In this document: in pieces, positions 1,752 to 60,415 of the stretch
Layout: each line of letters begins with the position of its first letter
How positions within the stretch are numbered: the stretch's first letter is position 1
Virus record (IMG/VR): IMGVR_UViG_3300037313_001869
Span: 32,001-96,000 of that record
Source of the DNA: a virus
Lineage: Duplodnaviria; Caudoviricetes
Reading direction: 5' to 3' (one strand)
DNA length: 64,000 nt
Translations under genes and position numbers: made by a program
Notes under the pieces: generated by a model
What the model was told of the DNA's origin: nothing
Databases searched by the model: none
Seen by the model: the letters and a program-made list of their open reading frames with translations, nothing else

Positions 1752-2102
1752 ATGGCCTCGCCCATTTTCAACAAGAAGCAGGAGCAACGGGGTCTCGCCA
1801 CCAAGGAGGCGCGGAGGATCAGCCGCACTTCCGACGGGCGGTCGTATGTCCCGGTTTCGGTCGCCACGGCCGAGAACCTGTGGAAGTACGCGACCCTGTG
1901 TGTGGAGAAGAAGGAGCCCTTCTCTCTCCTGAGCAACCTCGGCCCCTGGAACAAGGAAACCGGGACTCCGGCCATCCGGCTCATCCCTCCCGACCAGGTT
2001 CCCGAAGAGGCCGTGCGGCTCGTTCGTGAGGCGTTCGAGGCGATCGGCGCGGAGGTCCTCGAAGGACCTCCGGACCGGTTCGACCGCGAGGACGTGCTCT
2101 AA
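1752..2102 (+). CDS. hypothetical protein with RFDR tag
   Basis: Ends PDRFDREDVL-TAA. Confidence 0.8.
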   Translation: MASPIFNKKQEQRGLATKEARRISRTSDGRSYVPVSVATAENLWKYATLCVEKKEPFSLLSNLGPWNKETGTPAIRLIPPDQVPEEAVRLVREAFEAIGAEVLEGPPDRFDREDVL

Positions 2103-2642
2103 GAGCGCCATCCACTCGATCTTGGCGAACGAGAGGCCGAGCGCGAGGGCCTCGGCCGCCGTGATGACGAGCCCGTCCTTGCCCTCGGCCTTGACCCGGG
2201 AGGGCATGATGGGCTCGCCCGGGTGGAAGGTGAAGACCACCTCCTTGCCGTCGTCCTCGCCGAGGATGGCCACGGTGAAGGGAGCGACCTTGGCTTCGGC
2301 AGGGCGAAGGGCGACGCACGCCTCGACGAAGCCCGTCTTCTTCGGGTCGCGCAGGACCACGGGCGTCTCGGGGGGCAGGTCGGCGAGAGCCGAGAGCCCC
2401 TCGAAGCCCGGAAGCTCGGCCCGGAAAGCCGTGCAACCCTTCATCACGGCCGGGTGCTCGTAGGGGGCCCACGAGGCCGAGAAGAGCGCCGTCTCGATGG
2501 CCGACGGTTCGAGGTCGTAGCCGCTGCCGGCCGCTGCCGGAGAGAGCCGGGAGCGCATGGCAAGGCAGCTCGCGAAGTAGGCCGAGAGGGCCGAGCGGGT
2601 GGTGGAGAAAGCGACGAGAACGCGGGCGGTCGAGTTGGTCAT
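2100..2642 (-). CDS. hypothetical protein (ends at TTA)
   Basis: GAGGGGG RBS and ATG at 2642; in-frame TTA at 2102-2100 coincides with the convergent gene's TAA; code-11 extension would run about 600 nt antisense. Confidence 0.7.
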
Positions 2643-7625: not shown

Positions 7626-8138
7626 ATGGCGACAAGCTACATCAAAGATCCGTACGTCTACCTCGCGGCCCAGCTTTTCGGCGTGAAAGACGAAGAGGTG
7701 ACGTTCGACATGCGCGAGGCCATGAGGCGCGCGGTCAGCTACGCGGCCGAATCCGGCGCCCCTGCCAAGGTCCGGTTCTCGCTGCTTCGGCAGCACCTCA
7801 ACGGCCTGGGAAACCACCTCGACGGCATCAAGCTCCCGTTCACGCTGACCTGTGACCAGGGGAACATCGAGGCGCTTCTCGACTACTTCGCGACGCCGAA
7901 GACCGGTCCGTCCGAAGTCTCGCCGGGCCTCTACGAGCACTTCAAGGGCACGCGCTACCGGGTCCTTCTTGTCTCCCGCGACTCCGAGAGCCGGGAGAAG
8001 CGCGCCATCTACACCCCCCTGACGCCCGAGGAAGGGTGGGACGGGGTGCCGTGGGACCGTCCGGTCGGCATGTGGGGCGACCTTGTGAGGTGGCCCGACG
8101 GCAAGTACCGTACGCGCTTCGCCCGCGTGAGCGACTAA
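7626..8138 (+). CDS. DUF1653-domain protein
   Basis: PGLYEHFKGTRYRV...WDRPVGMW...RF; motif upstream. Confidence 0.75.
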   Translation: MATSYIKDPYVYLAAQLFGVKDEEVTFDMREAMRRAVSYAAESGAPAKVRFSLLRQHLNGLGNHLDGIKLPFTLTCDQGNIEALLDYFATPKTGPSEVSPGLYEHFKGTRYRVLLVSRDSESREKRAIYTPLTPEEGWDGVPWDRPVGMWGDLVRWPDGKYRTRFARVSD

Positions 8139-8585
8139 GGCATCGACCAAGAGGTACCGCAGATTCATGCGCGTATCCTGATCGCGGATCTTCCGGAACC
8201 CCGGGCCCAGCTCGTCGGCGAGCGGCTCGGGGAACTGGATCACGGTCGAGAGCTGATCCTGCTGCCGGCAGTAGCAGACGAGGCCAAGCAAGCTCGTCGT
8301 CGGGTCGTCGCAGCGGTAGAGGCGGTGGGCCAGGTGCTCGCAGAAGAGCGAGAAGAACACTTCGGCGTTCGCCGCTTGGTAGTAGACCGGTTCGAGCCTC
8401 CGGCCCCAGGGGTACCAGAGCAGCCGCCGCATTCTCTCCCGGCCCCGCAGCGATTTGCTGGCCAGGAAAGCGAACTCGGCGTGAGCCGGATCGTCGTGGT
8501 GGGTGACATGCCAGCCGCAGGCGGCCAGCTCGCCGGCCTCGTCGATGGCCGCTTGCAGGGTGGGGTAAGGGCCGTACGTCTTCAC
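8136..8585 (-). CDS. hypothetical protein (ends at TTA)
   Basis: In-frame TTA at 8138-8136; code-11 ORF would run on to 5682 across other genes; start codon uncertain. Confidence 0.6.
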
Positions 8586-17524: not shown

Positions 17525-17809
17525 TAACTTCGGGTCGTCCTGGTCGATCAGGTCTTCGAGGATCGCGATGACCATGCGTTCGTATCGGCCGACCTCCTCC
17601 CGATGCAGCAGCTCGATCACCGGGAGCTTGCGCTTGCGCTCCTCGATCGTGTCGCGGGCCGTGAACGAGAGGAGGGGGTTTGGGCTGTAGTCGGCCGTCG
17701 GGGTCGTGACGGCCAGGATCTCAGCCTCGCCCGACTCGACGAACATGCCGAGGGAAGAGCAGGCGTCCTTCAGGTGCCAGAACAGCTCGGATGCCTCGGC
17801 CTTGGTCAC
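17525..17809 (-). CDS. hypothetical protein (ends at TTA)
   Basis: In-frame TTA at 17527-17525, followed by a spacer and the helicase RBS/ATG. Confidence 0.65.
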
Positions 17810-22897: not shown

Positions 22898-23362
22898 TAA
22901 GACACCGCCTTCGTCGTCGTCCTCTTCACCCTCGGCGCTGGCTTCGCCCTCTTCGCCCTCACTTCCGCTGTTCTCGCCGGCCATGTTGAGATCGTCGAGG
23001 TCTTGCAGAAGTTCGAGAACGTGTCCGACGCCCTGCTCGTCTCGCCACATGCCCACCCACCCGACGAGGGGCACGTCGCCGCAGTCGCACTCACACATGA
23101 CGTTCTCGTCGAGGGCGAACTCGGTCTCGGCCCGGACGAAGAGAAAGGTACGGACGAGGTTGCCGTGCTTGCCGTCCTGGCAAGGCAGCATGGCCCAGAG
23201 AACGATTTTGCCCGGCTTCGACTTGTCGTCGATGTTGAAGATTTGAGCCCCGAAGGGCAGCTCCATGATCACGCGCTGGGTATCGAGGCCGACTTCGATC
23301 CCCTTGATGATGTAGCGGGGAGGGGCGAACGGGAGGTGCTCGATCGAGTGGTTGTCGCTCAC
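22898..23362 (-). CDS. hypothetical phage protein with acidic tail (ends at TTA)
   Basis: Acidic tail, then in-frame TTA at 22900-22898, 7 nt before next start. Confidence 0.7.
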
Positions 23363-25981: not shown

Positions 25982-27166
25982 ATGACACAACCGGCTACCA
26001 AGCAAAAAGCTCTCACCCCTGCTCCTCCCTGGTGGAATCACTCGCTTCTGCCGAGGCAGAACGTGATGAAGACCGGTCCCCTCGCCATGCTCCTTGGCTT
26101 CGCCGTCGCCCGCGGCGAGACGGTCTACACGGGCTCGTGCCGCGGGGTGCTCGAAGACAGTGATGAGGAGGGGCAGAAGGCGTTTCAGGACGACCTCTGC
26201 AAGATCGCAAAGGACTCCTCGGTCGTGCTCGTGGGCGGCCCGCTCTTCGGCCGTGGGGCCTACGAGACGTGGATCACCTGGGAGCGGGGCGCCATCACCC
26301 TCGAACTCGGGATGGACGGCAAGGTCAACCTGAACCTCGCGACGCTCGACGAGGACATCTACATGAAGCTCGCCGAGACCATCGGAGAGCACATGCTCCC
26401 CGAGGCGACGCGGCAGCCGGTCTACACGCTCGCGCAGGTCAACGGCGAGATGACCGTGGCCGAGCTGGGGCTCGCGGGGGCTCCGCTCGAAGCGGGTAAC
26501 TACGCCCCCGAAATCGTCGAAGACTTCAATTTCATCGTGCAGGACCTCGGCGAGAGCGTGCCGACCGGGCGCCTCGTGATCCTCGACGGCCCGCCGGGGA
26601 CGGGCAAGACCTACCTCATCCGGGGCCTCATCAACGAGGTGCTCGACGCGGTCTTCGTCGTCGTCCCGCCGCACTTCCTCCACCAGCTCACCGACCCCTC
26701 GTTCGTGCCGATGCTCCTCAAAGCCCGGGCGAACGCCGGCTCGGACAAGCCCATCGTGCTCATCCTCGAAGACGCCGATGACGCCATCCGGCTTCGCAAG
26801 GACCGCGGCAAGAACAACCAGATCGCGGCGCTCCTGAACCTCTCCGACGGCCTCATCGGCCAGGCGCTCGATCTCCGCATCGTGGCCTCGACCAACCGCA
26901 GCGTCGCCGAGATCGACCCTGCCCTTCGCCGCCCGGGGCGGCTTCTGCGGCACATGATCGTGGGCCCTCTCTCGCCCGAGCAGGCGAGCGAGGTCTACGA
27001 GCGGATCTCCGAGGGCGAAGAGGTCGAGTTCGAGGGCCCGACCACCCTCGCTCAGGTCTACGCCCACTTCAAGGGCCTCCAGCTTCTCGACGACCAGGAG
27101 GACGAAGACGAGGAGGACCTCGACGAAGATGAGGACGACGAAGATGAGGACGACGAGGACGACTTA
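25982..27166 (+). CDS. AAA+ ATPase with acidic tail (ends at TTA)
   Basis: GPPGTGKT, ILEDAD, LLNLSDG, STN, IDPALRRPGR; poly-D/E tail then TTA at 27164. Confidence 0.85.
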
Positions 27167-31101: not shown

Positions 31102-31542
31102 ATGGAAGTCATGCCTGACTCGAACTCTCCCCCAGCGCCCCCGACGGTACCCCTGGACGAGCCCATCGAAGCATCGTGGGCCACGGCCAAGCAGAGCAAG
31201 GTTCCGCACCTCGACCGTGAGGCGCTGAAGAAGTTCGTGCTCGACTTTCTCGACGGGCGCATCTTCGTGAGCGCGGAAGTCCGGGAGATGTCGCTCTTGC
31301 CGAACATCTTCATGCCCATTGCCTTCGGTGCCCTCGCGGGCTTTACCGAGGAGGACACGAAGGAGGTGGGACTGATCTGGGAGTACCTCGACCGGGCCGG
31401 ACCCCGGGCCATCAACGGCTACCCGATCTTCTCGTCGTGCCGCATCATGCACCGGGACGACTGGGAGAAAGCACACGCAGCCATCAGCAAGGAGATCGAC
31501 CGGCGCAAGGCCGCCGAGGCATCGATCCTGGAGGACCTTTTA
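31102..31542 (+). CDS. hypothetical protein (ends at TTA)
   Basis: AGPRAINGYPIF; in-frame TTA at 31540 overlaps next ATG (TTATG). Confidence 0.75.
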
Positions 31543-32309
31543 TGCTCGTACAAGCCATGACTCCGCGGCTCGTCTGGAACATGCAGGCGTTCCCGCGCAA
31601 CGTCGTCATCCTCACCGAATCCATGCCCGGCGTCTCACGGGGCCGGGTAATGGTCGGCTATACGACCGACTTTCAAGCGGGCCTCGCCGAGACGGCGGCC
31701 ATCGAGCCTCTGCGAGACATTTCGATCCGGGGCTCGGATGCGGTCGTCCACGAGTACGTGGTGCCCTTTCACCTGATCACCGACCTCCGAGGTCGCCTCG
31801 GTTCGACCGACGGCTTCCGGGTCACGGTCGAGTCGGCGCACCGGGGCGAACGAGCTACGTCGGGCTGGCTCGAACGGCGGGTCTCGTTCCTCCACCGCTT
31901 CCCCATCGAGGGTGGGGGCATCGTGCGAATGCGGATCGGGGACATGGAGATGGACTTCGCCAACCCCCACTTCGACCCCAAGGCGGAGCCGCCCGAAATC
32001 GGTCCCGAGGACGAGGTCGCCAGGGTCGAGGGCCAGCGCATGAGCACCCGCAACCTTTCCATCGCCATCGACCGGGTCCACGGGGGCCGGAGCCCGGCAA
32101 CCGTGGCGGCGGCGCAAGCTCGAAGGGAAGCCCGGATCGCCTCGTTTCAACAGAGCTTCCGGGAGGTACCCAGGGACCTCCCGGCCGACGCGGCGAGCAG
32201 GGCCGCCAACTACGAGGCCCAGGAAGCCGCGCTCGCCAACATCCAGACCCCGTCCTTGCCCCCGATCCGGCAGAACCGTTTTGACCGGATCGGGTGGGAC
32301 GACGAGTTA
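31542..32309 (+). CDS. hypothetical protein with RFDR tag (ends at TTA)
   Basis: GGAGG RBS; ends QNRFDRIGWDDE then TTA at 32307, coinciding with convergent TAA. Confidence 0.7.
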
Positions 32310-32870
32310 GCCCGTCCGAAGCGCCGTCTGGACCGCCGCTCGGACGCTCCTCCGGGTCGGCGCCTCCAGCGTGAAGGGGAAGGTGGCCGAGAGCCGGTCG
32401 TCGCCTCGGTCGCCGCCCCAGAGGGTCATCTCGCTCACGGCCCACTGGATCGGGTCGAGGGTCATCTCGTCCACGTCGTCCTCGCATTCTTGGCAGTAGG
32501 CGAGCGTGACATGGGGCTTGTACTCGGGATACTTCGTGTCGTAGGGGGCGCCCACCTCGTCGAAGGCCCGGGTGAGCTTTGCTCGTAGCTGGTGGAGCTG
32601 GGGCGAGTCGATATGGGCGATGAGCGGCATCCCGTCGGGGTTCTTCGGGAAGTTGCCGATCCGGCTCGTGCTCACGAGGAAGGGGTGGCAGGTTCTTGCC
32701 ACCTCGTACGCCGCCTCGATCGCGAGCAGCACCGACTCGATCGGCACGTCCTTGCCGAGGTAGAGAATCGTGATGTGCTTTTCGTCCGACGGAGTCTTCT
32801 CGCCCGGCACGTCGAGCCCGGTCAGAAGACGGGCGGTTTCGTGGGGCACGCGGATTCCGAGAAAGGCCAT
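32307..32870 (-). CDS. 2H phosphoesterase (2'-5' RNA ligase/Acb1-like)
   Basis: Two HxT motifs: KHITILYLG and YKPHVTLAY. Confidence 0.85.
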   Translation of the reverse strand: MAFLGIRVPHETARLLTGLDVPGEKTPSDEKHITILYLGKDVPIESVLLAIEAAYEVARTCHPFLVSTSRIGNFPKNPDGMPLIAHIDSPQLHQLRAKLTRAFDEVGAPYDTKYPEYKPHVTLAYCQECEDDVDEMTLDPIQWAVSEMTLWGGDRGDDRLSATFPFTLEAPTRRSVRAAVQTALRTG

Positions 32871-32904
32871 GGAGCTACTTGTCCTTGAGTTACAAGCGAA
32901 AAGG

Positions 32905-33453
32905 TCAGACGCGCTCGAAACGGGTGGGTGCGTCTGACGTGGTGGGCTCGCTTGGGGCCCCGCTGCGGAGGGTCTCCGGAGGGAGAACCTCGAAGAAGTC
33001 AAAGACCGATGGGTCGAGCGCGAGAACGCGGCTCTCCGAGAGGACCGGGTAGACCGGGGGCACGACGCTCTCGACCGTAAAGAGGCGAGCCTCTCGGTTG
33101 ATATGAACGACGCGCATCCGGCAGCCGGTGTGGTCCTGCAACACGTCCCCCACGTACACCGGCACGTCTCCGGGGACGTGGGCAGGGTAGGGGTCCGGTT
33201 CGGTAGGTCCCCACATTGCAAGGAACACCTCCCAAGGGTACTCGACCGTCTCGGGCATTCCGTCCTCGTCCATCACCACCAGCTCGATCCGGGTGATCGG
33301 CGTAGCCCCGAGATGGGCTACTTCGTGGATCTGGACGATGCGCGCGTACCGTTCTTCGCCAGGGACCCGGGACCTCACGAGCACGTTGGGGTTCGCCCAA
33401 AGGCTCGGGTCCGGGTCGGTCGAAGGTTCCGGAGGGTCGGAGGGATCGGGCAT
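32905..33453 (-). CDS. two-module SH3-like protein with RFER tag
   Basis: Ends APTRFERV. Confidence 0.75.
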   Translation of the reverse strand: MPDPSDPPEPSTDPDPSLWANPNVLVRSRVPGEERYARIVQIHEVAHLGATPITRIELVVMDEDGMPETVEYPWEVFLAMWGPTEPDPYPAHVPGDVPVYVGDVLQDHTGCRMRVVHINREARLFTVESVVPPVYPVLSESRVLALDPSVFDFFEVLPPETLRSGAPSEPTTSDAPTRFERV

Positions 33454-33512
33454 CGCGCACCCAGATCCCCGGCTTTGGAAGTTTAGCGACGCCCGGGCGG
33501 TGTTATAGCGGG

Positions 33513-33878
33513 GTGATGCTCGGACTTTACATCGGTCTCGGGATCACGTCGGCGCTGTTGATCCTCGTGATCTTCAAGCTCATCGACCTTGAAAGCAAGC
33601 TGTTCGGAGTAAGCGAGCGGCAGAGGATCGATTACGAGTACGCAAAAACCCTGTTCTCCGATCACGCCGATCGCCTCCATCGGGCCGAGTCCCGGATCGG
33701 AAGGCACGACCAGCAGTTCGAGACCGTCGACCGGTCCCTCGACAACGACGCAGTGCGTCTTGCCGACCTCGAACAGGCCACGAAAAAACGCCGGAAGGGG
33801 CCCCCTCATCTCACACTTGTCTCGACAAATGACGACGAGTCCGACAAGCCCGGCACCACACGGTTTGACAAGTTTTGA
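33513..33878 (+). CDS. membrane-anchored coiled-coil protein with RFDK tag
   Basis: N-terminal hydrophobic helix; ends TTRFDKF. Confidence 0.75.
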   Translation: MMLGLYIGLGITSALLILVIFKLIDLESKLFGVSERQRIDYEYAKTLFSDHADRLHRAESRIGRHDQQFETVDRSLDNDAVRLADLEQATKKRRKGPPHLTLVSTNDDESDKPGTTRFDKF

Positions 33879-33976
33879 GCGCTTAGGTAGGCTTTGCGGT
33901 TAGGTCGGCGGCCTAGGCACCTGGGGGCACCTCGCTCTCTCGCCCGGCAGCTTGTGCCTAGGAAGGTCTCTAGCCC

Positions 33977-34204
33977 ATGCCCGTCGCGCACAAGTATGCT
34001 GCCCCGTCCGCCGCCTACGTTGCCCTGAAGAGCGTCGACCCGGATGAGATGCTCATGTGGATCTTCGAGGTGAGCAAGGGGCAGAGCTTCCCGCTCCCCG
34101 TCGAGATCGGGGGGGAGGTCCACGTCTTCGACTCGCTGGCCTCGATGGTCGGCTTCGCGCGTGGTCTTCGATGTGCCCAGGAGACGCACGGCGTCTCTCC
34201 CTGA
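33977..34204 (+). CDS. hypothetical protein
   Basis: GGAAGG RBS. Confidence 0.6.
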   Translation: MPVAHKYAAPSAAYVALKSVDPDEMLMWIFEVSKGQSFPLPVEIGGEVHVFDSLASMVGFARGLRCAQETHGVSP

Positions 34205-34223
34205 GCCGGTGTAGGGGCTTCGC

Positions 34224-34592
34224 ATGAGCGAGCCTAACTACCGCGACCTTCTCGTCAATATGAGCCCGCAGGGGGCCGATACTCTGAGGGGTATCGCAGA
34301 GCTTCACGTCAAAGCGGCGCGCATCGCGGGCTACGTGGCCTTCACGACGGAAGAGGCACGTACTCTCCGCGGGCGACTCCGGGATCTCCGTGGGGACGAT
34401 CTCCACTACGTCCTGATGCGCCTCCCCTCGCACCTCAACCAGGGGCTCCGGGAGTTCTTCGAGGCCGAGGAGCAGTTCCGCAAGGGCGAGATCCTCGATT
34501 GGGTGCCTCGGGGGCTCAGGCCGTCGCACGAGCCGGACTTGCTCTTCATCCGGCTCGCCACGGTCCCTTCCCCTGCATCGTCGGATTCCTGA
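34224..34592 (+). CDS. hypothetical protein
   Basis: CGGTGTA 10 nt upstream. Confidence 0.7.
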   Translation: MSEPNYRDLLVNMSPQGADTLRGIAELHVKAARIAGYVAFTTEEARTLRGRLRDLRGDDLHYVLMRLPSHLNQGLREFFEAEEQFRKGEILDWVPRGLRPSHEPDLLFIRLATVPSPASSDS

Positions 34593-34598
34593 CTTCGC

Positions 34599-35072
34599 TA
34601 AGGATTCGTCGACAGTGCAGAGCTTTCGCCCGGTAGCCCTGAGGCCCTTTTGCTGGGGCATGTTTGCCTCATGGGGCGCTTTGGCACTGGACAGGTTACC
34701 AGCCCTCTCGGAGTCCTTCTCCGGCATGACCTGGGCAAGCACCGGCACCGGTCCCGATTCGGCGGGTCGACCGATGAGGGGCATCGTCTCCTCGCCCATC
34801 TTCGCTCGCGTCGCCTTCTCGGCGAGCATCATCGCCAGGTTGCCGATGATCACCGTCTTGGTGAAGAACTCGTGCGGCTTCGTCACCGGGTCGGTCTCCT
34901 TCAGGCTTGCAACCTTGGCTTCGAGCTGCTTCACGAGCTTCTCGGTGGGGAGGTTCACCCAGTTGGCCGGATCGTCGTAGCCCTCCATTTGGAGCTTCGC
35001 CTCCATGACCACCGCGAAAGCGGCCACTTCGGGACACACGGCCATACCCAGCGTCTTCGATTTGTTCTGCAT
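34599..35072 (-). CDS. hypothetical phage protein (ends at TTA)
   Basis: FAVVMEAKL...IGNLAMML; in-frame TTA 6 nt from the convergent gene's stop. Confidence 0.7.
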
Positions 35073-35250
35073 ATTCCCTCTTCGGTCAGGTGGGAAGGAG
35101 CGTGCCGCCCGACCGAACCGGCCGGGCGTTATGCACGTTTGGGGCCATTGGTAGCATTGCCCGTCCTGTTACGATCCGTATCGTATTTTTACGGCACAGA
35201 TCGCCCCTCCCCCAAGCTTTCGAGAAACTACTGAAGAGTGGTTCAGGGGT

Positions 35251-35637
35251 ATGACGAAGCGCCCTTGCAAGGTCTGCCGGAGCGAGATCGACGACAGCCC
35301 TTTCACTGATGAGATGATCACCCTGTTCGAGCAGGCCGAGGCGTGTGACGACCCCGAGCGCCGAACCGAGATGGTCTTCGAGCTGGCGCGGCTCTTTGTC
35401 GATGCGGCGTCGGAGTCCGATACGGTGGTCCCCGATGACCTCCACGAGACCATTCAGGCTGCCCTTCAAGCCCATATGAAGTGGCGTGCCAGCATGATGC
35501 GCGTGGGCCGTGTCGTTATTCGGTCCTTGCAGGATATGAAGGAGAATCCGGAGATGTGGGACCATCTGCGGGGCCACTCCAAAACGCCTACGCCTTCGGT
35601 AGGGCCGAGCAAAAAGGGCAAGGGTCCGACCAACTAG
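35251..35637 (+). CDS. hypothetical protein
   Basis: CKVC N-terminus; CTAG convergent overlap. Confidence 0.7.
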   Translation: MTKRPCKVCRSEIDDSPFTDEMITLFEQAEACDDPERRTEMVFELARLFVDAASESDTVVPDDLHETIQAALQAHMKWRASMMRVGRVVIRSLQDMKENPEMWDHLRGHSKTPTPSVGPSKKGKGPTN

Positions 35638-36194
35638 AGGGTATCCCTTTCGAGAACCCGGCTCATCCGGGTCCAGGTACCGTGGGCGTGCCGCAGTGCG
35701 GCAATCAGCCTAACACACTCCTCGGCCGTGAACGAGCCCAAACTCCACCGCGCCTGAGGAATGGCTTCCTGGGAACACCAGTCGAGAAACCACCGCCTCG
35801 ACTCGGATACGGCCTCGTCGTCGAATGGGTCGCGGTCCTCGGGTGGGGCAAACGCCACACGAGGAACAAGTAGCTTGTAGGCTTCTTTTCGGAGCGCTCG
35901 GGTCCTGGCGTCGACCGGAGTGCCTACCGGCGAGCCATCGTCAAGAGCGGCTACGCTGCCCCGGCACGAAGTCTCCTCCCACCGAGAACAACCGTAAAAA
36001 AGGCCGTGTTTTCCGGACTTGAGGGTCAACATAGACCCGCAGTCGGGGCACGGGAGGTCGGTTCGCCGACCCGGAAGCATGGAACTCAGGGACCGAACGA
36101 GCTGGAGGAGCCGGGGGAACTTGTGTGCCAGGTCCGGGTCCAGATCGAGTCCGATGTCCTCTGCCATGAGGGGTCTATACCCCGGGACCTTCAA
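35634..36194 (-). CDS. topoisomerase-type C4 zinc-ribbon protein
   Basis: CPDCGSML...GLFYGCSRW...CRG. Confidence 0.75.
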   Translation of the reverse strand: MKVPGYRPLMAEDIGLDLDPDLAHKFPRLLQLVRSLSSMLPGRRTDLPCPDCGSMLTLKSGKHGLFYGCSRWEETSCRGSVAALDDGSPVGTPVDARTRALRKEAYKLLVPRVAFAPPEDRDPFDDEAVSESRRWFLDWCSQEAIPQARWSLGSFTAEECVRLIAALRHAHGTWTRMSRVLERDTL

Positions 36195-36826
36195 TCATCG
36201 TTGAGGATTTTGCTCCACCGATCCGATTCCGAACGCAACGAACTTGAGGTTTCTTCTCCTTTCTTACGATGCCAGGTCAGGAAGGGGTCGCTTGAAGGGT
36301 GATAGCTCATCGAAAGCCCCGTATGAGCGTGGTTGTCGTAGTGAAGTTCGACCCACCCCCCATTCCGGATTGACCCCAGGTAGTTGAACACCTCTCCGGG
36401 CCCTGCGAGCGGAGCCATCCCCCGGTTGGCCACGATCTCTGCCCCCGGTTCGACCTGGATGCGAAGCTCCAGGTACCGGTCCCCTTCTCCGTACCAGCGA
36501 GGCGAGAGACGGACGAAGCGGTCAGAGCAGTAGAAGACTTCGCCTACGCCTCCGGCTAGGCAGACGGTGCGGACTTCCAGCTCACTGCCGACTCGACAGT
36601 GTCTCGCCGGCAAGCTCGTGTGGAGGGACGCCCTGCCTTCTCCGTCGGGCGTGAAGGGGAGCGCCTTACGGCCGCGTTTGCCGACTTGGTAGAGAACCCC
36701 GTCGGCCCCTCCCTCATTCTCCTGAAAGGACAGATGGCGCGTCCGGATCTTCAGGATGGGCTCGATATCGTCGAGCGTGGGTGCGATTGTGATGAGGCTC
36801 TCATCGAGAGCCAGGTGGATGCTCAT
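36191..36826 (-). CDS. hypothetical protein
   Basis: Packed ORF; ends SDRWSKILNDD. Confidence 0.65.
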   Translation of the reverse strand: MSIHLALDESLITIAPTLDDIEPILKIRTRHLSFQENEGGADGVLYQVGKRGRKALPFTPDGEGRASLHTSLPARHCRVGSELEVRTVCLAGGVGEVFYCSDRFVRLSPRWYGEGDRYLELRIQVEPGAEIVANRGMAPLAGPGEVFNYLGSIRNGGWVELHYDNHAHTGLSMSYHPSSDPFLTWHRKKGEETSSSLRSESDRWSKILNDD

Positions 36827-36890
36827 ACAGAAGTCGTCGTACAGACAGACCAAACATCCCGGCCTGGCACTCCGCACAAGCCACCCCAGA

Positions 36891-37778
36891 TCAAGCGTCC
36901 TGGAGGAGACGTACGAGTGGCGGACAGCGTCGCTTGATCCGTTTCTCCTCGGTCTTTGTCCGATGCCAGCCAACCACTAGCCCGATCGGGCTCCCGAGCG
37001 CGGCCCACTTCGAGGCGGCCGAGAGCAGTACGTAGAGGTCGTCCATGCCTCTGCGGGCCTCAATGTCTTCGAGCCCGTCGAGCACGACGACGAGCGACCC
37101 GATCAGCCGGTTGTGTCTCGCGAGGGCGAGCAGAAAGAGCAGGGCCTCGATCCGGTCTCCGTCGTCGAGGCGGTCGAGGGGGCCCGAGAGAATCGCGTCG
37201 TGCGCTTGCGCTTCCTCCCCTTGCAGCCACCGAACCAAGGTCTCGAAGGTGCTTCGCGCGGCTTGTTGCTCCCGCTCACCCATGGCCACGGCGTAACGAA
37301 GGTCCCCGAGCAAGGCCATGGCTTGTGCGTAGACCGAGTGTCGTCGATCCGCGAGGTCGAAGAGCTGCTCGGGTCGGGCAAGGTGGTTCACAACCCCGAG
37401 GCCCCAGAGGAGCTGCCAGCCCTCAATCCCAGGGGGCAGCCCTGCCACGTAGGACTCGGGCTCGCGGCACTCGATCGGAACCGGGCATCGCCGAAAGGCC
37501 GCTGTCAGAAAGTCAGCGCTGCGCCCTCTCCAAGAAGGGTCAGCCGAGAAGAAGGCCACAGTCCCAGGGCTGAAGATGGCTTCTTCCCGGGCGACCCTTT
37601 GGTAGAGTGCGTCTCGATCTCGCTGCTGACCGGTAACGAGCAGAAACGGCCGAGACCCTTCGCCGATCCTTCGCGACCACGCCACCGTCTCGTGCAAGAC
37701 GGCCGTTTCGATGATCGAAGGAAAGGGCCGAGCGCCCCGCAGGTCTTCCCAGTAGTCCTCCACGTCGAGCTTCGGCAT
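36891..37778 (-). CDS. hypothetical protein (possible degenerate P-loop fold)
   Basis: LVVVLDGLE is Walker-B-like; no clear Walker A. Confidence 0.65.
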   Translation of the reverse strand: MPKLDVEDYWEDLRGARPFPSIIETAVLHETVAWSRRIGEGSRPFLLVTGQQRDRDALYQRVAREEAIFSPGTVAFFSADPSWRGRSADFLTAAFRRCPVPIECREPESYVAGLPPGIEGWQLLWGLGVVNHLARPEQLFDLADRRHSVYAQAMALLGDLRYAVAMGEREQQAARSTFETLVRWLQGEEAQAHDAILSGPLDRLDDGDRIEALLFLLALARHNRLIGSLVVVLDGLEDIEARRGMDDLYVLLSAASKWAALGSPIGLVVGWHRTKTEEKRIKRRCPPLVRLLQDA

Positions 37779-38368
37779 AACGGGCCAAGCGTCTCATCGA
37801 GAAAGAAGCGCATCGGCTTTCGGAGTTGCGGCGAGTAGAAGTCGACCGCAATCCGGCCGTCTACCTCCCGGACCACTCGGTAGTTGTCGAGCTTACCATC
37901 GCGTCGATGGCTTTCGAGGGCGAGAAGCCCGTGGTAGCCCAGCATCACACCGGAGAGGTTTGCGAGCGACCGGTCGAGAAGGGTTCGGGGCAGGGCTCGC
38001 ACGAGCGCTTGGATCTCCGCCGGGGTCATCCCATCAGCGCTCGCCATGAGGCAGCCGAAGAGTCCGCGGGCCTCGGACGCTTGCGCCTTCTTCCACTGAA
38101 CAAAGAAGGTCGAGGCCCCGGCCGAGATCATGGCGGCGAGCATCTCGCTCGTCACAGGCTGCCCGTCGTATTGCTGGAACTTGGCCTTCAGCTCCTCGAC
38201 CGTGGCGTGGTGGGCCTTGTCGTAGAGAACGAAGTCGTCGTGCTCCGGGGGCAACACCGCCGAAGGTGGAGGAGCGGGCCGGTTTCGGAGGTCTTCCCAG
38301 AACTCCTCGGTGCCAAAGCCCGGGTCTTCCTTCGACGCCCGCTCGATCGCGTCGAGCGTGGGTTTCAC
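37778..38368 (-). CDS. hypothetical protein (ends at TTA)
   Basis: GTGA start overlap; in-frame TTA overlaps next ATG (TTATG). Confidence 0.7.
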
Positions 38369-38820
38369 GCGAGCCTCGGCCCCAGCCACGGGGGCAAAAA
38401 GAGGTCGGTCTTGTCGAAGCCGCTCGCGATCCAGAGTGAAGGCTCGTTCGGGACCTGCCAGGGCCGGGGAATACCCTTGAATCGATCGAAGCCCCCCTCG
38501 ATGAACCGGAACTGCGCGTCTCGCTTCTCGCCCTCCCACCCGAGGGCCTCGGCGCTCGCGAGCAGGGCTCGGGATCGTTCGAGCGTCCAGTCTCGCATGA
38601 GCGGGGCCACGAAAAAGAAGATGGGCCCCTGGTAGCGAAGCGCAAACGAGAGACCGAGCACGAGCGTGGCGTCGGTCTTGTCCTCGTCACGCGCCCGACA
38701 AGAGAAGCCTCGCTTCTCCCCTTCGGCCTCAAAGAGGACTCGTTCGGCCTCGGTTAGGGCCTTTGAGGAGAGAAGCTGGTGGGCGTAGTAAAGCGCCTTC
38801 TGGTGTGGGCTCGGGGTCAT
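38365..38820 (-). CDS. hypothetical protein
   Basis: CGGTGTA motif 15 nt upstream of ATG 38820. Confidence 0.7.
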   Translation of the reverse strand: MTPSPHQKALYYAHQLLSSKALTEAERVLFEAEGEKRGFSCRARDEDKTDATLVLGLSFALRYQGPIFFFVAPLMRDWTLERSRALLASAEALGWEGEKRDAQFRFIEGGFDRFKGIPRPWQVPNEPSLWIASGFDKTDLFLPPWLGPRLA

Positions 38821-41430: not shown

Positions 41431-42141
41431 TTGGAAACCATCATCAACTGGCTTGTGAGCATCATGATCGCCGTCGCCCCTCTGGGCGCCCCCTCGTACA
41501 TCCCCGAGGCGAAAGAGACGGCAGAAGAACGGCAAGCCCGGTACGAATCGTTCGCACGAGACCTCGTCGAGGTTGCGTTCGACGAGGACGAACAGCCCCT
41601 CTACGGGGGTAAGAACGCACGAGCGTTCACGGCCCTGACCCAGCTCGCGGTTGCGACGTTCGAGTCTCGTCTCCGTCGCGACGTGGACTTCGGCAAGGGC
41701 AAGTATGCCAAGGGGGACGGCGGCAAGTCGTGGTGCCCTGTGCAGATTCAGCTCGGCAAGGCGAGGCCGTCGAACGGCAAGACGCCGCTTCGGATCGTGC
41801 TGACGAGCGACGGAGGCTTCGAGTTCACGAACGACCCGGACAAGGGCTTCGGTGGCGAGGACCTCGTGGGCGAGGGCAACCGCAAGAACTGCCTCCGAGC
41901 GGGGCTCCACATCATGCGCCGATCGTTCGGTGCGTGCCGGTCTCTGCCCGTCCAGGACAGGCTCCGGGCGTACGCAAGCGGGTCGTGCAGCAAGGGCTCG
42001 AAAGAGAGCCAGGCCCGCATGAACCTTGCGATCCGATGGATGACCCAGAAGGCCCCTCCGATGGCCGATGCCGAGATCATCGACCTGCTTCGGCCGAAGA
42101 CGGACGAAGATAGTCCGGTCGCATCGGCTCTCATGCCCTGA
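41431..42141 (+). CDS. lytic transglycosylase/lysozyme-like protein with N-terminal signal anchor
   Basis: AGGAG + TTG start; hydrophobic N-terminus; ATFESR putative catalytic Glu. Confidence 0.55.
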   Translation: METIINWLVSIMIAVAPLGAPSYIPEAKETAEERQARYESFARDLVEVAFDEDEQPLYGGKNARAFTALTQLAVATFESRLRRDVDFGKGKYAKGDGGKSWCPVQIQLGKARPSNGKTPLRIVLTSDGGFEFTNDPDKGFGGEDLVGEGNRKNCLRAGLHIMRRSFGACRSLPVQDRLRAYASGSCSKGSKESQARMNLAIRWMTQKAPPMADAEIIDLLRPKTDEDSPVASALMP

Positions 42142-50136: not shown

Positions 50137-50364
50137 GTGACCCTCGCGGACGAGATCGAGCACGACTGGCGCTTCACCCTCCTTCGGCCGTTCCCGAAGC
50201 CGCACAGGGAGGAGCGTGACCCGAACGCCCCTCCGAAGTCGATGATGGAGCAGGTTTTCGAGGACCTGTCGAGGAAGATCGCGGCGGAGCTAGACGAGGA
50301 GATCCTGGGGTCGATTCCGGAGCTTCCCGTCTACCCCTCCCGCTTCGAGCGCCTCGCCGCCTAA
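50137..50364 (+). CDS. small protein with RFER tag
   Basis: Ends YPSRFERLAA-TAA. Confidence 0.7.
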   Translation: MTLADEIEHDWRFTLLRPFPKPHREERDPNAPPKSMMEQVFEDLSRKIAAELDEEILGSIPELPVYPSRFERLAA

Positions 50365-51288
50365 GAGCCCGTCCATCACCATGCTGAGCAGGGCCATGCG
50401 GACGTAGAGCCCGTTCTGGACCTGGGTGAAGTACCGGGCCCGGGGGTCCTGGTCGATGGCCTTGTCGATCTCGCTCACCCGGGGCAGCGGGTGCAAGATC
50501 ATGGCGTCGGGCTTCATGGACTGGACCATGGGCAGGGTGAGGTTGCACGAGTCCTTGACGGCCGCGTAGGACTCTTCGTTGGCGAAGCGCTCCTTCTGCA
50601 CCCTCGTGATGTAGAACACGTCGGCGTATTCGAGCGCGTCGCTGAAGCGGCTCGTCAGAACGACGGGGATGTCCTTCGGCAGAAGATCGCGGTACTCGTC
50701 CGGCAGCCGGAGAGACAGGGGGGCGACGAGGTAGAGGGACCGGAGCTTGTACCGGCTGAGGAGCTTCAGAAGCGAGTGGACCGTGCGCCCATTCTTCAGG
50801 TCCCCGACGAACGCCACACTCAGGCCGTCGAGCGACTCCCTCTCGGCCGCGATCGTGTAGAGGTCGAGAAGGGCCTGGGTCGGGTGCTCGCCGATGCCGT
50901 CACCTGCGTTGATGACCGGCACCGGCGAGACCTCGGCCGCCCGGGCCGCCGCGCCCATCTCGGGGTGCCGGAGCACGATGGCATCGGCGTACTGGCCGAG
51001 CGTCATGATCGTGTCTTCGAGCGTCTCGCCCTTGGTCACGCTCGAAAACTGCACGCCCTGGGTGATCGGGATGACCGAGCCCCCGAGCCTCGTCATGGCT
51101 GCGATGAACGACGACGAGGTCCGGGTCGAGGGCTCGTAGAACAGGCACGCCAGCACCCGGCGCCGCAGCCGATCGGAGCTGTGGTAGCGCGTGACCATCT
51201 GGGCCATCTCGCGCGTGCGGGTGAAGACCTCTTTGATGTGGTCGTTCGTGAACTGGTCGACGCTGAGGATGTGCTTGAGCTTCTCCAT
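50362..51288 (-). CDS. pyrB: aspartate carbamoyltransferase catalytic subunit (ends at TTA)
   Basis: FYEPSTRT, KGETLED, HPTQALLD, HPLPR, QVQNGLYVRMALL; 308 aa if TTA is a stop. Confidence 0.95.
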
Positions 51289-51822: not shown

Positions 51823-52575
51823 TAAGACACCGAGAGCGAGCGCGTCGATTCGGCCATAGAGCGGGTCGAGGCCGTTCATCTCGTTTCGCACGAGGTGGCC
51901 GAAGTCCTCGTCCGGGATGCCCGTCGACTCGGCTTCCGAGGCGTGGCTTCTCCAGCTCTCGTCGTTCTTCTTCGGAGGAGGGGCGAGCACGCGCCAGGTC
52001 TGTCCGCCCTCGTCCTCGATGGCCCCCATCTCGTTCCGGAAGCGCATGTCGGGGATCACGATACCCTTGGGGGTCTCGTACCCGCCTCGATCGTACGGCC
52101 ACTGAAGGAGTCCCTGGGTGTGGTGGTAGCCGTACTTCCCCCCAGGCGAGAGAACCTTGCGGGCGATGTTGAAGGCGTAGTTGACCCAGGTATCCTCGAA
52201 GCAGGTTCGGCCAAATTCCGTTCCCAACTTTTGCAAAGCTTCGCGCGGCGTGAGGTAGGTCATGCGAAGATGGCACTTGGGGCACGCCAGGCCCTCGTAC
52301 TCCAGATGTTCGAGCACCATGTGCTCCGGGGCCCTCTTCACCCCCGCCTGGGCGCACCAGGGGCACACCTTCCACTTCGGGTAGCGCAGGTCGGGCACGC
52401 TCCGAAGCTCCGACGGCCCCCAGAGCTGCTCTTCGCTGAAGTCGTAGACCTCGCGGCAGTAGCGCTTCAGGGGGTCAGCGAAGGCGATCTTGGCGAAGCC
52501 GTGGTGGTTGACGAGCCGGTCGGCAATCGTGTCCTTGCCCGACCCGGCGGGCCCCGAGATTCCTACGATCCTCAT
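51823..52575 (-). CDS. deoxynucleoside monophosphate kinase with Zn-finger insert (ends at TTA)
   Basis: GPAGSGKDT, FADPLK, TPREALQKLGTE, PDMRFRNE, HASE. Confidence 0.88.
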
Positions 52576-53977: not shown

Positions 53978-54523
53978 ATGTCCTCTGTCACCGTGCTGAT
54001 GCGCCGCGACTACCAGCTCGTCGAGCAAGCGCTCCCCCGAGACACCCTGGTCATTCAGGTCCCGACCGAGTACGGCTGGGGCTCACCCGACGGCAACCTT
54101 TACGGCGTCGAGATCGAAGAGGTGCTCCCTCCCTCCCGAGGGCTCCGAAGCTACCGCCGCGAAGCCCGAGCCCAGACCGAGAAGCGCTACCGCCTCCGGT
54201 TCTCCGAAAGCTCCGCCCGGTACGTCCGAGCGATTCGCGGGCCGCTAGAGAAGTTCGTGATGGAGCGACGGAAGAAGGCCGATGTTCGAGAGTACGTCGA
54301 GATCGAGGTGAAAGCCTGCCGGCTCGGCGACCTCCCCGAAGGTGCCCACGCCCTTCTCGAACACCGCGACGAGGACGACGATTTCTCGTGGGAAGCCCTC
54401 CGCGTCCACCGAGTGCCCCCGACCCGCAAGCAGGTGGAGAAGGCCGAAGGCAAGATCCGCTACAAGCAGCGGGCCTACCTCCGGCTCCCGACTCGGTACG
54501 ATCGCCTCAGCGCCGAGGACTTA
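53978..54523 (+). CDS. hypothetical protein with RYDR tag (ends at TTA)
   Basis: Ends PTRYDRLSAED then TTA at 54521, coinciding with convergent TAA. Confidence 0.7.
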
Positions 54524-56289: not shown

Positions 56290-57492
56290 ATGCGCTCCAT
56301 GGAACTCCGCCTCAACGACCAGCTTCTCTACCATTCGACCTTCGACCCAGCGACGGGCAACCTCGTCCGCGCGGTCGAGATCGGCGAGAGGTACGATTCG
56401 CCGTGGGATGTGCATGGCAAGTCCGACGAGGACAAGGCGTGGAAGGCACGCTACGGCTACCGCCACGGGCCGTTCTCGCCCTCGCCGGAGCTGGTGGACA
56501 TCGCCATCACCGACAAATGCTACATGGGCTGCACCTACTGCTACCAGGACAGCCGCCCGAAGCGCGACCACGCCCCGAAGGAGCTGGTCGAGAAGATGAT
56601 CCAAGGCTTCGATTACGCCCCTTACCAGGTCGCGATCGGCGGCGGCGAGCCGACGCTTCACCCTGATCTGCCCTACATCCTGCGGCGGGCACGGGAGCTG
56701 GGCTCGGTACCCAACTACACGACCGCGGGCGATCAGATCCGCGAGGACGTGATCGAGGCGACCAACGAGGTCTGCGGCGGCGTCGCCATGACCTACCACA
56801 GCTTCAAGGGCATCGACTGGTTCGTCTCGCACTACCAGGCCCTTCGCGACCGGCTGAAGGTCCAGCTCAACGTCCACCTCATCGCTGACAAGGACGTGGC
56901 CACGAACCTGCTCGCGCTCTGTTCCCGGTACAAGGAACTCGGGCGGCTCCGGCTCGTCCTGCTCGCCTACTACCCTGACGTGGGCCGGGCGTCGATGGAC
57001 CGGCTCCTCGCCAAGCGTACGTACATGAAGGACCTGCCCGAGGCGATCAAGTTCGCCCGCGTCTCGGGCTTCGACATTGCCTTCAGCGAGGGGCTCCTTC
57101 CCTTCTTCCTCTCGCGCCCCGGTCTCGGGGTCGAGACGAAGTTCGCGATGGCCGTCGAGGGCAAGTTCTCGTGCTACTTCGACACGCGCGGCCGGATCGC
57201 GGTATCGAGCTTCGACCACCGGGGCCTCAACTGGGAGCGCGACGACGAGGTTCGCCCTACGGTCTTCACCCACAGCTCGCAGAGCATGTGGGACAAACTC
57301 TGGGGGAGCCACACCAGCCCTCGGGGCGACGCCTGCTACGACTGCGCCCAGCGGCCGAGGTGCGCGACGCCCCACGACTTCCACTACTTCGTCTGCGCCT
57401 TCGCCCAGCACAACCAGACGCCGCTCCGCGAGCCCGACGTGACCCCCGAAACCGCCCACGACCGCGTCCTCAAGGACGACGAGGTGATCTGA
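56290..57492 (+). CDS. radical SAM protein
   Basis: CYMGCTYC, GGGEP; C-terminal Cys cluster. Confidence 0.92.
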   Translation: MRSMELRLNDQLLYHSTFDPATGNLVRAVEIGERYDSPWDVHGKSDEDKAWKARYGYRHGPFSPSPELVDIAITDKCYMGCTYCYQDSRPKRDHAPKELVEKMIQGFDYAPYQVAIGGGEPTLHPDLPYILRRARELGSVPNYTTAGDQIREDVIEATNEVCGGVAMTYHSFKGIDWFVSHYQALRDRLKVQLNVHLIADKDVATNLLALCSRYKELGRLRLVLLAYYPDVGRASMDRLLAKRTYMKDLPEAIKFARVSGFDIAFSEGLLPFFLSRPGLGVETKFAMAVEGKFSCYFDTRGRIAVSSFDHRGLNWERDDEVRPTVFTHSSQSMWDKLWGSHTSPRGDACYDCAQRPRCATPHDFHYFVCAFAQHNQTPLREPDVTPETAHDRVLKDDEVI

Positions 57493-57881
57493 TGCCTCTC
57501 CTTCTCTCCATCAACACGAGCTTCATCACCAACAGCAGCTCGGCCGTTCACCACTTCCCGCGCGAGCTTCTGAACGACCCGTCCATCCGGGCCTTCATCG
57601 CGGCGTTCGAGCTGGATGGCGGCGTCATCGGCTCGGACATGTGGTCGCGTGACCTCTGCACGACCGTGGCCATGACCCCCGAGCAAAAACAGGAGGTCCT
57701 CTCCAAGCTCGTCACGGGTTCGGAGTATTGCAGCCCTCCGTCCATCCAGACCGACGACGACACGATCCTCATCATCTACGGTGACGAGCACACGAGCGTG
57801 GCCTCGTCGCTCGCGCGGCTGATGGAGTCAGTGGCCGAGAAGCTGGGCATCAAGCTCCAGGGCAGCCAGGAGTACAACTTA
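57492..57881 (+). CDS. NSSS-motif protein (ends at TTA)
   Basis: TGATG overlap with rSAM; SFITNSSS; TTA at 57879 coincides with convergent TAA. Confidence 0.7.
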
Positions 57882-59554: not shown

Positions 59555-60415
59555 ATGAGCAGAGCACAACCTTTCCTGAAGTGGGCTGGCGGCAAGAGGC
59601 AACTTCTCCCCGCCCTTCTCCAGCGGCTTCCGTCGGAGATGAAGACGTACTACGAGCCCTTCCTCGGTGGTGGTGCGCTCTTCTGGGCCCTTGACGCCGA
59701 GGACGCCTTCGACCGAGCCGTGGTCGGGGACATGAACCCCGAGCTGGCCAACGCCTACCGGCTCTTCGCCGGCCCGGCCCATGGGGTCGAACGGGTGGTC
59801 GAGCTGCTGAAGGGCTACCCCCACACGCGCGAGTTCTTCGAGGACATGCGCCGGAAACTGCCGCACGAGCTGGGCGAAGCCGAGCGCGCAGCCTGGCTCA
59901 TCTACCTGAACCGAACGTGCTTCAACGGCCTCTACCGGGTCAACAAGATGGGGGTCTTCAACGTGCCCTTCGGCGACTACGAAAACCCGACCATCTGCGA
60001 CGAGGACAACCTGCGCGAGGTGGCCGAAGCCTTGCGCAACCCTCGGCTGACGTTCATGCAGGCAGACTTCGAGCAAATCGTCCAGACGGCCGAGGCTGGG
60101 GACGTGGTCTACTTCGATCCGCCGTACTTGCCCCGAAGCGATACGGCCCGATTTGCCGAGTACGTCGTCGATGGGTTCGACATGGCGAAGCACGAACGAC
60201 TCGCCAGGGTCTTCGCCGACTTGGCCAACCGAGGGGTTGGCGTGCTCCTGTCGAACTCGGACACGCCCGCAACCCGGGAGCTGTACCGGGACTTCCAGAT
60301 CGACACGGTCTACGCCAAGCGAGCCATCAACGCCAAGGGCGACAAGCGGGGGCCCATCCCCGAGATCCTGGTCTCGGCGAACCTGACCCCCGCGCCCGCT
60401 GCCGAAGTCGGCTTA
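59555..60415 (+). CDS. dam: Dam-family DNA adenine methyltransferase (ends at TTA)
   Basis: PFLKWAGGK, EPFLGGG, YFDPPY, LLSNS, EILVSAN; 286 aa if TTA is a stop. Confidence 0.92.

Follow-up and report, generated by a model that had tools for sequence, protein, structure and literature searches.

Can a codon that specifies leucine in close relatives mark the end of genes in a bacteriophage? This question is raised by two short overlaps in a stretch of 64,000 nucleotides of viral DNA (Caudoviricetes; IMG/VR record IMGVR_UViG_3300037313_001869), which as a whole is referred to below as the window. The record, here called G000, is the complete virus record of a soil jumbo phage (435,218 bp, direct terminal repeats, 65% guanine plus cytosine [GC], 44 tRNAs detected by ARAGORN), and its capsid shares 90-96% identity with the capsid of a large, uncultured clade of jumbo phages. 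The window corresponds to G000:32001-96000, so that 32000 has to be added to a window coordinate to obtain the G000 coordinate; other G and L labels denote the related phage genomes and loci that were compared. At window positions 31540-31544 (plus strand) and 37780-37776 (minus strand), an in-frame TTA shares its A with the ATG of the next gene. An earlier note had taken these TTATG overlaps as a sign that translational coupling treats UUA as a terminator. The comparisons reported here indicate that TTA works as a fourth stop codon in G000, at these two sites as well as throughout the genome.

At the first junction, TTA (31540-31542) is in frame with an upstream open reading frame beginning at 31102. 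The resulting gene (31102..31542, plus strand) codes for 146 aa and has no Pfam or PHROG match. The ATG at 31542 opens a gene of 255 aa (31542..32309, plus strand) which extends to the next TTA and carries an RFDR tag 6 residues before it. The ribosome-binding site proposed for this ATG was found: the Shine-Dalgarno sequence GGAGG is located at 31530-31534, 7 nt before the ATG and within the upstream gene. Taken alone, junction 1 is ambiguous because read-through under the standard stops of table 11 adds just 6 codons and ends at an ATGA overlap (31557-31560). The homologs and the Shine-Dalgarno sequence decide the matter in favor of TTA as the gene end. The ortholog of the upstream gene in G001/L054 (46% identity) has TGA in the same column, at offset 0 from TTA, and the alignments of the downstream homologs from L054 and L208 begin at residue 1 of the 31542 start. 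The TTA which ends the downstream gene (32307..32309) is read on both strands, as a TTA stop on the plus strand and as the TAA stop of a convergent gene (32307-32870, minus strand) that matches PHROG RNA-ligase families.

At the second junction, TTA (37780-37778) is in frame with an upstream gene on the minus strand (37778..38539; its start is uncertain and may be 38368 or 38539), and the ATG opens a gene of 295 aa with a TGA stop (36891..37778, minus strand). A clear Shine-Dalgarno sequence was not seen for the ATG at 37778. Under table 11, the upstream gene would gain 92 codons and overlap the next gene. Its homolog in L325 has TGA at offset 0 and adjoins a homolog of the same downstream gene, and the downstream homologs (L053, L325, L327, L273) have their starts within about 1-9 residues of 37778. 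At neither junction do upstream homologs extend past TTA; they stop at the TTA column, and downstream homologs start at or near the overlapping ATG. A short acidic stretch with WEDLR recurs in similar form in both genes of junction 2 and may be a common motif.

Logan contigs from two public soil runs cover both TTATG sites (31540..31544 and 37776..37780) with 0 differences, which rules out an assembly or editing artefact. As these runs may be the source samples of G000, the agreement confirms the bases and nothing further.

The use of TTA as a gene end is not confined to overlaps. When TTA is counted as a stop, 599 genes are called in G000, and 68 of these (about one in nine) end with TTA, among them the genes for HU, RecA, and ClpX and genes flanking the major capsid gene. 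We determined for various triplets if the coding signal continues past them after 40 coding-like codons. It did so for only 4 of 48 in-frame TTA triplets (8%), next to 9% for TGA, 14% for TAA, and 19% for TAG, versus 59% for CTA, 61% for TTG, and 70% for TTT (CTA, TTG, TTT, ATT, and TAT span 59-78%; TTA vs. CTA, p = 5e-8). All four TTA exceptions involve an in-frame next gene or a convergent partner. The gene-model score is 31864 without and 34097 with TTA as a stop, a gain of about 2200, compared to scores of 31983-32173 (gains of 120-310) for the controls CTA, ATA, and TCA. Stop-to-sense recoding as in codes 15 and 4 was not observed: the gene-model score falls when TAG is dropped, and both TAG and TGA end the coding signal. 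In 13 of 46 convergent gene pairs, one and the same triplet is used as TTA on one strand and as TAA on the other, a geometry which is impossible under the standard code.

It might be argued that TTA is still a leucine codon and that the genes just have C-terminal extensions up to the next standard stop. Leucine is its meaning in most relatives, the read-through at junction 1 is short and terminates in an overlap with the next ATG, and some other extensions are short as well. Over all 68 genes, however, the median extension gained by read-through would be 72 codons, with at least 30 codons in 49 cases and a maximum of 1272. For 29 TTA-ended genes with homologs, the homolog stop lies not more than 3 codons from TTA in 21 cases and is nearer to TTA than to the table-11 stop in all 29. 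In the orthologs of gene g253, the TTA column or the codon before it holds TGA in 51 cases, TAG in 3, TAA in 2, and TTA in 1 (L236). One protein terminates in Gly-Gly-TTA, and its ortholog in Gly-Gly-TAA. Reading TTA as leucine would mask this terminus and the Ala-Ala terminus of the transfer-messenger RNA (tmRNA) tag described below, would leave the 13 exact TTA/TAA pairs unexplained, and is at odds with exact stop-column matches in many independent genes and with the failure to find TTA within genes. We thus consider this explanation very improbable.

With the proteins of relatives used as queries, 62,586 codons of G000 were covered, and 0 true cases of internal TTA were found among them; three apparent cases are shadow frames. 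As ATA is also very rare within genes (9 in the 62,586 homology-supported codons), the absence of internal TTA is weak evidence on its own. A C-terminal sequence motif provides a separate view. R-[FY]-[DE]-R, seen at window 32298-32309 and across the genome, occurs not more than 20 residues from the C-terminus in 79 called genes, usually 4 residues before the stop (this is also the median before standard stops). Five of the 79 genes, all small and outside the structural block, end with TTA; their tags are found 4-16 residues before TTA versus 84-750 residues before the table-11 stop. Taken together, there is little doubt that TTA marks protein C-termini genome-wide, and it was not found inside genes.

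A stop-column match is also present in a gene that does not code for a protein. The tmRNA of G000 (528 nt; G000 c269912-270439, L013:4912-5439, minus strand) was found by Rfam and missed by ARAGORN, and it is about 130-180 nt longer than those of relatives (346-397 nt). Its tag frame reads ANDNFAASPALAA, then TTA. Where the G000 tag ends Ala-Ala-TTA, Ala-Ala is followed by TGA, TAG, or TAA in all 12 relatives whose tags could be read. When viral sequences were scanned for further tmRNAs with an Ala-Ala-TTA tag, only ordinary AALAA-stop tags were retrieved. Because the G000 tmRNA itself stops at UUA, it cannot be the rescue route for this codon; were it to do the rescuing, it would stall at the UUA that it contains. 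A protein of 88 aa that ends with Gly-Gly is encoded upstream of the tmRNA region (G000 272170-272436, minus strand); it has no Pfam match and is possibly ubiquitin/ThiS-like.

Translational coupling at TGATG and TAATG is a known system. The TTATG sites resemble it in their -1 stop/start overlap and in having a Shine-Dalgarno sequence within the upstream gene, and differ in that TTA occupies the stop slot. The TGATG sites with which the earlier note had compared them (27562, 49721, 51288, 57492) are all present. For NNATG pentamers with an ATG at the start of a coding frame, we recorded if NNA is in frame with an upstream coding sequence. This holds for 4 of 4 TTATG, 28 of 92 TGATG, and 30 of 665 sense-codon pentamers (Fisher p = 6e-6). 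Among called genes genome-wide, overlaps are of the TGATG type in 56 cases, of the TTATG type in 6 (one of them doubtful), and of the TAATG type in 2. At two junctions located beyond the window, G000 180108 and 413003, a relative (G001 and L162, respectively) has TGATG in place of TTATG with the same downstream start. Orthologs of the two junctions in the window have TGA and a spacer, and the overlap is not conserved there.

The earlier view of these sites has to be modified accordingly. UUA as a terminator is supported by several independent lines (stop columns, coding signal, gene model, convergent pairs, and junction swaps), and the overlap geometry with a real downstream start is found as described. 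Coupling is not the cause of termination, however, since just five or six of the 68 TTA-ended genes have an ATG overlap. TTATG overlaps occur because TTA is a general stop, and they are not a special coupling device. Coupling at TTATG is nevertheless plausible: by analogy with TGATG, the ribosome could re-initiate at the overlapping AUG after termination, aided by GGAGG at site 1.

An extremely improbable alternative is that UUA triggers a frameshift or hop which fuses both genes at TTATG, as in Streptomyces phage phiHau3. UUA bypassing has experimental support (PMC10732093), and the downstream gene is in the -1 frame; on the other hand, in the orthologous pairs the two genes are separate and have standard stops, a slippery or landing motif in common was not found, and 62 of the 68 TTA ends have no overlapping start. 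The +1 codon at both TTATG sites is TAT, so that a +1 UAG is missing, as had been noted earlier. Genome-wide, a +1 shift into UAG was rejected because G follows TTA in 41% of cases, which is no more common than after TGA (39%) or TAA (41%). A frameshift context common to the TTA ends was not found, and a +1 stop is present in just 31 of 68.

How could the TTA-stop state have originated? About 80 relatives were linked to G000 by their capsid. In most of them, TTA occurs within genes and aligns mainly to leucine. As G000 is nested among these relatives, its TTA-stop state is derived. The corresponding tRNA-Leu(UAA) is present in G001, G008, G011, G016, G026, G034, G041, and G043 and absent from G000. 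G026 and G043 keep this tRNA although a single TTA is found among 35,889 and 23,537 homologous codons, respectively. Six high-GC relatives (G003, G004, G019, G031, G036, G046) lack TTA both at gene ends and within 5,700-42,500 homologous codons; by these counts, they are in a codon-disappeared state. TTA at stop columns was not seen in eleven further high-GC relatives, which were sampled over 40-240 kb. In L236, TTA occurs only at an end (1 site, with a standard stop 51 codons later), and in L026/L080 it also occurs only at ends (2 sites, one of them a TTATG overlap). L236 is on another branch than G000 in the capsid-region tree, in which L026 is not included. Patchy TTA stops in separate high-GC branches, together with the six TTA-free relatives, fit a property that is set by the host. 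The steps of codon capture (leucine with its tRNA, loss of the codon, codon as stop) can be seen next to each other in the relatives, so that this model is testable.

The agent of peptide release was sought in the phage. Genes for RF1/RF2/ArfB, eRF1-like proteins, and SmpB were not found in G000, using PF00472, PF03462, and PF03464, phmmer with RF1/RF2/PrfH on six frames, and a GGQ scan for release factors (RF). No gene of the RF-1 family was seen in 46 relatives. The sole RF-family gene among the relatives is PrfH-like (G002:166k; L037:1282-1875), and G002 reads TTA as leucine. A viral scan for RF2 with Ala or Gly at the serine of the SPF motif gave no match. Pth2 and tmRNA were ruled out as specific causes of UUA release as both are clade-wide. 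With no phage RF found, Pth2 and tmRNA clade-wide, and no frameshift context, a class I factor of the host is the simplest remaining agent.

The host is probably a member of the Polyangia (Myxococcota). The family of a gene in the window (41431..42141, plus strand; one homolog is annotated as having a transglycosylase SLT domain) has chromosomal members in Sorangium and in Polyangiaceae metagenome-assembled genomes. As a lead only, the nearest Atlas clusters of HU are mostly from Myxococcota. The Sorangium loci have no TTA in 2,745 codons, a number that is too small to judge. A ClpX scan of genome contigs for a host gave a single irrelevant match, and TnpB and HU homologs with their context led to other phage-like contigs.

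We therefore propose the following scenario. UUA would be a real termination codon during infection, and TTATG an ordinary TGATG-type overlap with TTA in the stop slot. Peptide release at UUA would be carried out by the host class I release factor, most likely an RF2 with a changed codon-reading serine, as in labyrinthulean mitochondria and peDinoflagellate plastids. A high-GC Polyangia host may have nearly lost UUA as a leucine codon beforehand, so that codon disappearance was followed by capture. The phage, devoid of the tRNA-Leu(UAA) that is kept by most sampled relatives with TTA as leucine, would then have accumulated TTA stops through single changes from TGA or TAA. We favor this assignment to a host class I release factor, probably an altered RF2, as the probable one. 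The chances are about even for the wider proposal that a free-living soil bacterium, probably from the Polyangia (Myxococcota), natively has a four-stop code in which UUA is a stop because of an altered release factor. Two independent organellar UUA-to-stop changes coincide with a replacement of RF2 Ser204 by Ala, Gly, or Cys (PMC12574857), and this hypothesis translates into a direct prediction for the host.

Several observations weigh against a host-set code. TTA stops are more common in conserved core genes (17% vs. 8.5%, p = 0.002), and the ratio TTA:TAA is 34:18 in core genes versus 34:43 (p = 0.02). tRNA-Leu(UAA) is also absent from seven partly sampled tRNA clusters of relatives. The end-only TTA triplets of L236 and L026/L080 amount to three sites in short contigs and are thus supporting, not decisive. 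The host assignment rests on two gene-family leads.

Given the enrichment in core genes, a late code that is switched by the phage has to be reckoned with. In that case, a standard-code host would be infected, an unrecognised phage factor would make UUA a stop during infection, and core and late proteins would have correct ends only afterwards. This factor, of a non-GGQ type, might act as a partner of host RF2 or modify it; host tRNA-Leu(UAA) might be destroyed in addition or left intact. The distribution of TTA ends along G000 is in line with this, as their share is 32% between 200 and 240 kb and 1-4% in two blocks of small orphan genes (0-40 and 360-400 kb). There is also a parallel in phages that infect standard-code hosts and use recoded stops in their late genes (10.1101/2021.08.26.457843). 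The oversized tmRNA would fit as well, as would the 333 called genes without a homolog among the loci compared. However, a candidate factor was not found, small orphan genes also end in TTA (25 of these 333), gene age accounts equally well for the core enrichment, and TTA-free relatives in several branches suggest a host constraint. We consider a switch by the phage possible but unlikely.

It is also conceivable that no factor reads UUA and that ribosomes stalled at an empty codon are freed by rescue. The routes could be peptidyl-tRNA drop-off with Pth2, ArfB/ArfA-type release after mRNA cleavage, or slow action of a near-cognate RF. The missing tRNA-Leu(UAA) agrees with an empty codon, G000 encodes Pth2, tmRNA, Ro60, and HAD_SAK RNA-repair genes, and ribosomes pause at UUA in Streptomyces (PMC10732093). 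Yet Pth2 is found in 13 of 18 and tmRNA in 13 of 20 relatives, including genomes with TTA as leucine, and the tmRNA has UUA as its own stop. Cleavage at UUA would destroy the overlapping AUG of TTATG and would cut the tmRNA. A slow route is also ill-suited to the ends of HU, RecA, ClpX, and capsid-flanking genes and to an excess of TTA over TAA in core genes. We thus regard rescue at an empty codon as quite unlikely.

Additional TTA-ended genes are found across the window. The gene for aspartate carbamoyltransferase (50362..51288, minus strand) has a TGATG start overlap and ends with a TTA shared with a convergent TAA; the Pfam OTCace profile is complete to position 156/157, five residues before TTA. 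A TTA shared with a convergent TAA also ends the genes at 2100..2642 and 8136..8585 (both minus strand) and at 59639..60415 (plus strand), as well as a RYDR-tagged gene (53978..54523, plus strand) with the tag 5 residues before TTA. Acidic tails are found in the gene at 26066..27166 (plus strand), where TTA is followed by GCC ATG, and in that at 22898..23362 (minus strand). Finally, TTA ends a dNMP-kinase-like gene (51823..52575, minus strand), a gene with a TGATG start (57492..57881, plus strand), and a gene at 17525..17809 (minus strand).

Two side observations concern RNA genes. An amber-suppressor-like tRNA(CUA) adjoins Pth2 and HAD_SAK_2 (G000 c331929-332707; L016:6403-7707, minus strand), although TAG is a normal stop, and G001 and G025 have two CUA tRNAs each. 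A Ro60/TROVE gene (G000 322394-323962, minus strand), the RNA-ligase-like gene at window 32307-32870, and HAD_SAK together suggest an RNA repair kit.

The 68 phage genes ending with UUA imply that a bacterial ribosome terminates at UUA in the living cell. Termination would be either native, which means a new bacterial genetic code, or driven by the phage, which means a new way to rewrite termination. If a native host code is true, it would be without precedent among prokaryotes as a sense-to-stop reassignment, and G000 would have revealed it. Such a code would have been missed because screens of the Codetta type cannot detect sense-to-stop changes (PMC9825746). A practical consequence is that database proteins of G000 are too long: HU is stored with 144 aa and should have 110 aa. 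In the open literature, to which our search was confined (subscription papers being outside its scope), we found no report of UUA as a stop in a phage or bacterium, and UUA has so far been described as a stop only in some mitochondria and plastids.

Among known systems, the phages recoded to code 15 or code 4 (10.1101/2021.08.26.457843) share with G000 a code unlike that of close relatives and a bias for core or late genes. The direction is opposite in G000 (sense to stop), a suppressor tRNA is not needed, and TAG and TGA stay stops. In Streptomyces, with its bldA-dependent UUA, and in the terminase bypassing of phiHau3 (PMC10732093), GC content is also high and UUA is exceptionally rare with a special meaning; there, however, UUA is internal and is decoded or hopped, whereas it is terminal only in G000. 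In Marsupiomonadales and Pseudoscourfieldia mitochondria, UUA and UUG are stops via an altered mtRF1a (PMC12574857). The change from leucine to stop and the suggested route of codon disappearance under GC bias are shared with G000, where TTG is, in contrast, an ordinary internal codon and tRNA-Leu(CAA) is encoded.

The closest counterparts are found in two organellar codes. Labyrinthulea/Thraustochytrium mitochondria (NCBI table 23) use UUA as a stop. In peDinoflagellate plastids, UUA and UCA are stops, which has been called the first sense-to-stop change outside mitochondria (PMC12574857, 2025). Both codes share with G000 the lack of interior UUA, UUA at orthologous stop columns, a bacterial-type translation system, TTG staying leucine, and, as far as the phage's own tRNA genes go, the lack of a cognate tRNA. 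In terms of sequence, G000 belongs with NCBI table 23 and the peDinoflagellate plastid code and appears to work like them. It differs from them in that the code is used by a bacteriophage within the cytoplasm of a bacterium, with about 600 genes and 65% GC, in which TCA stays serine and a release factor was not found in the phage genome.

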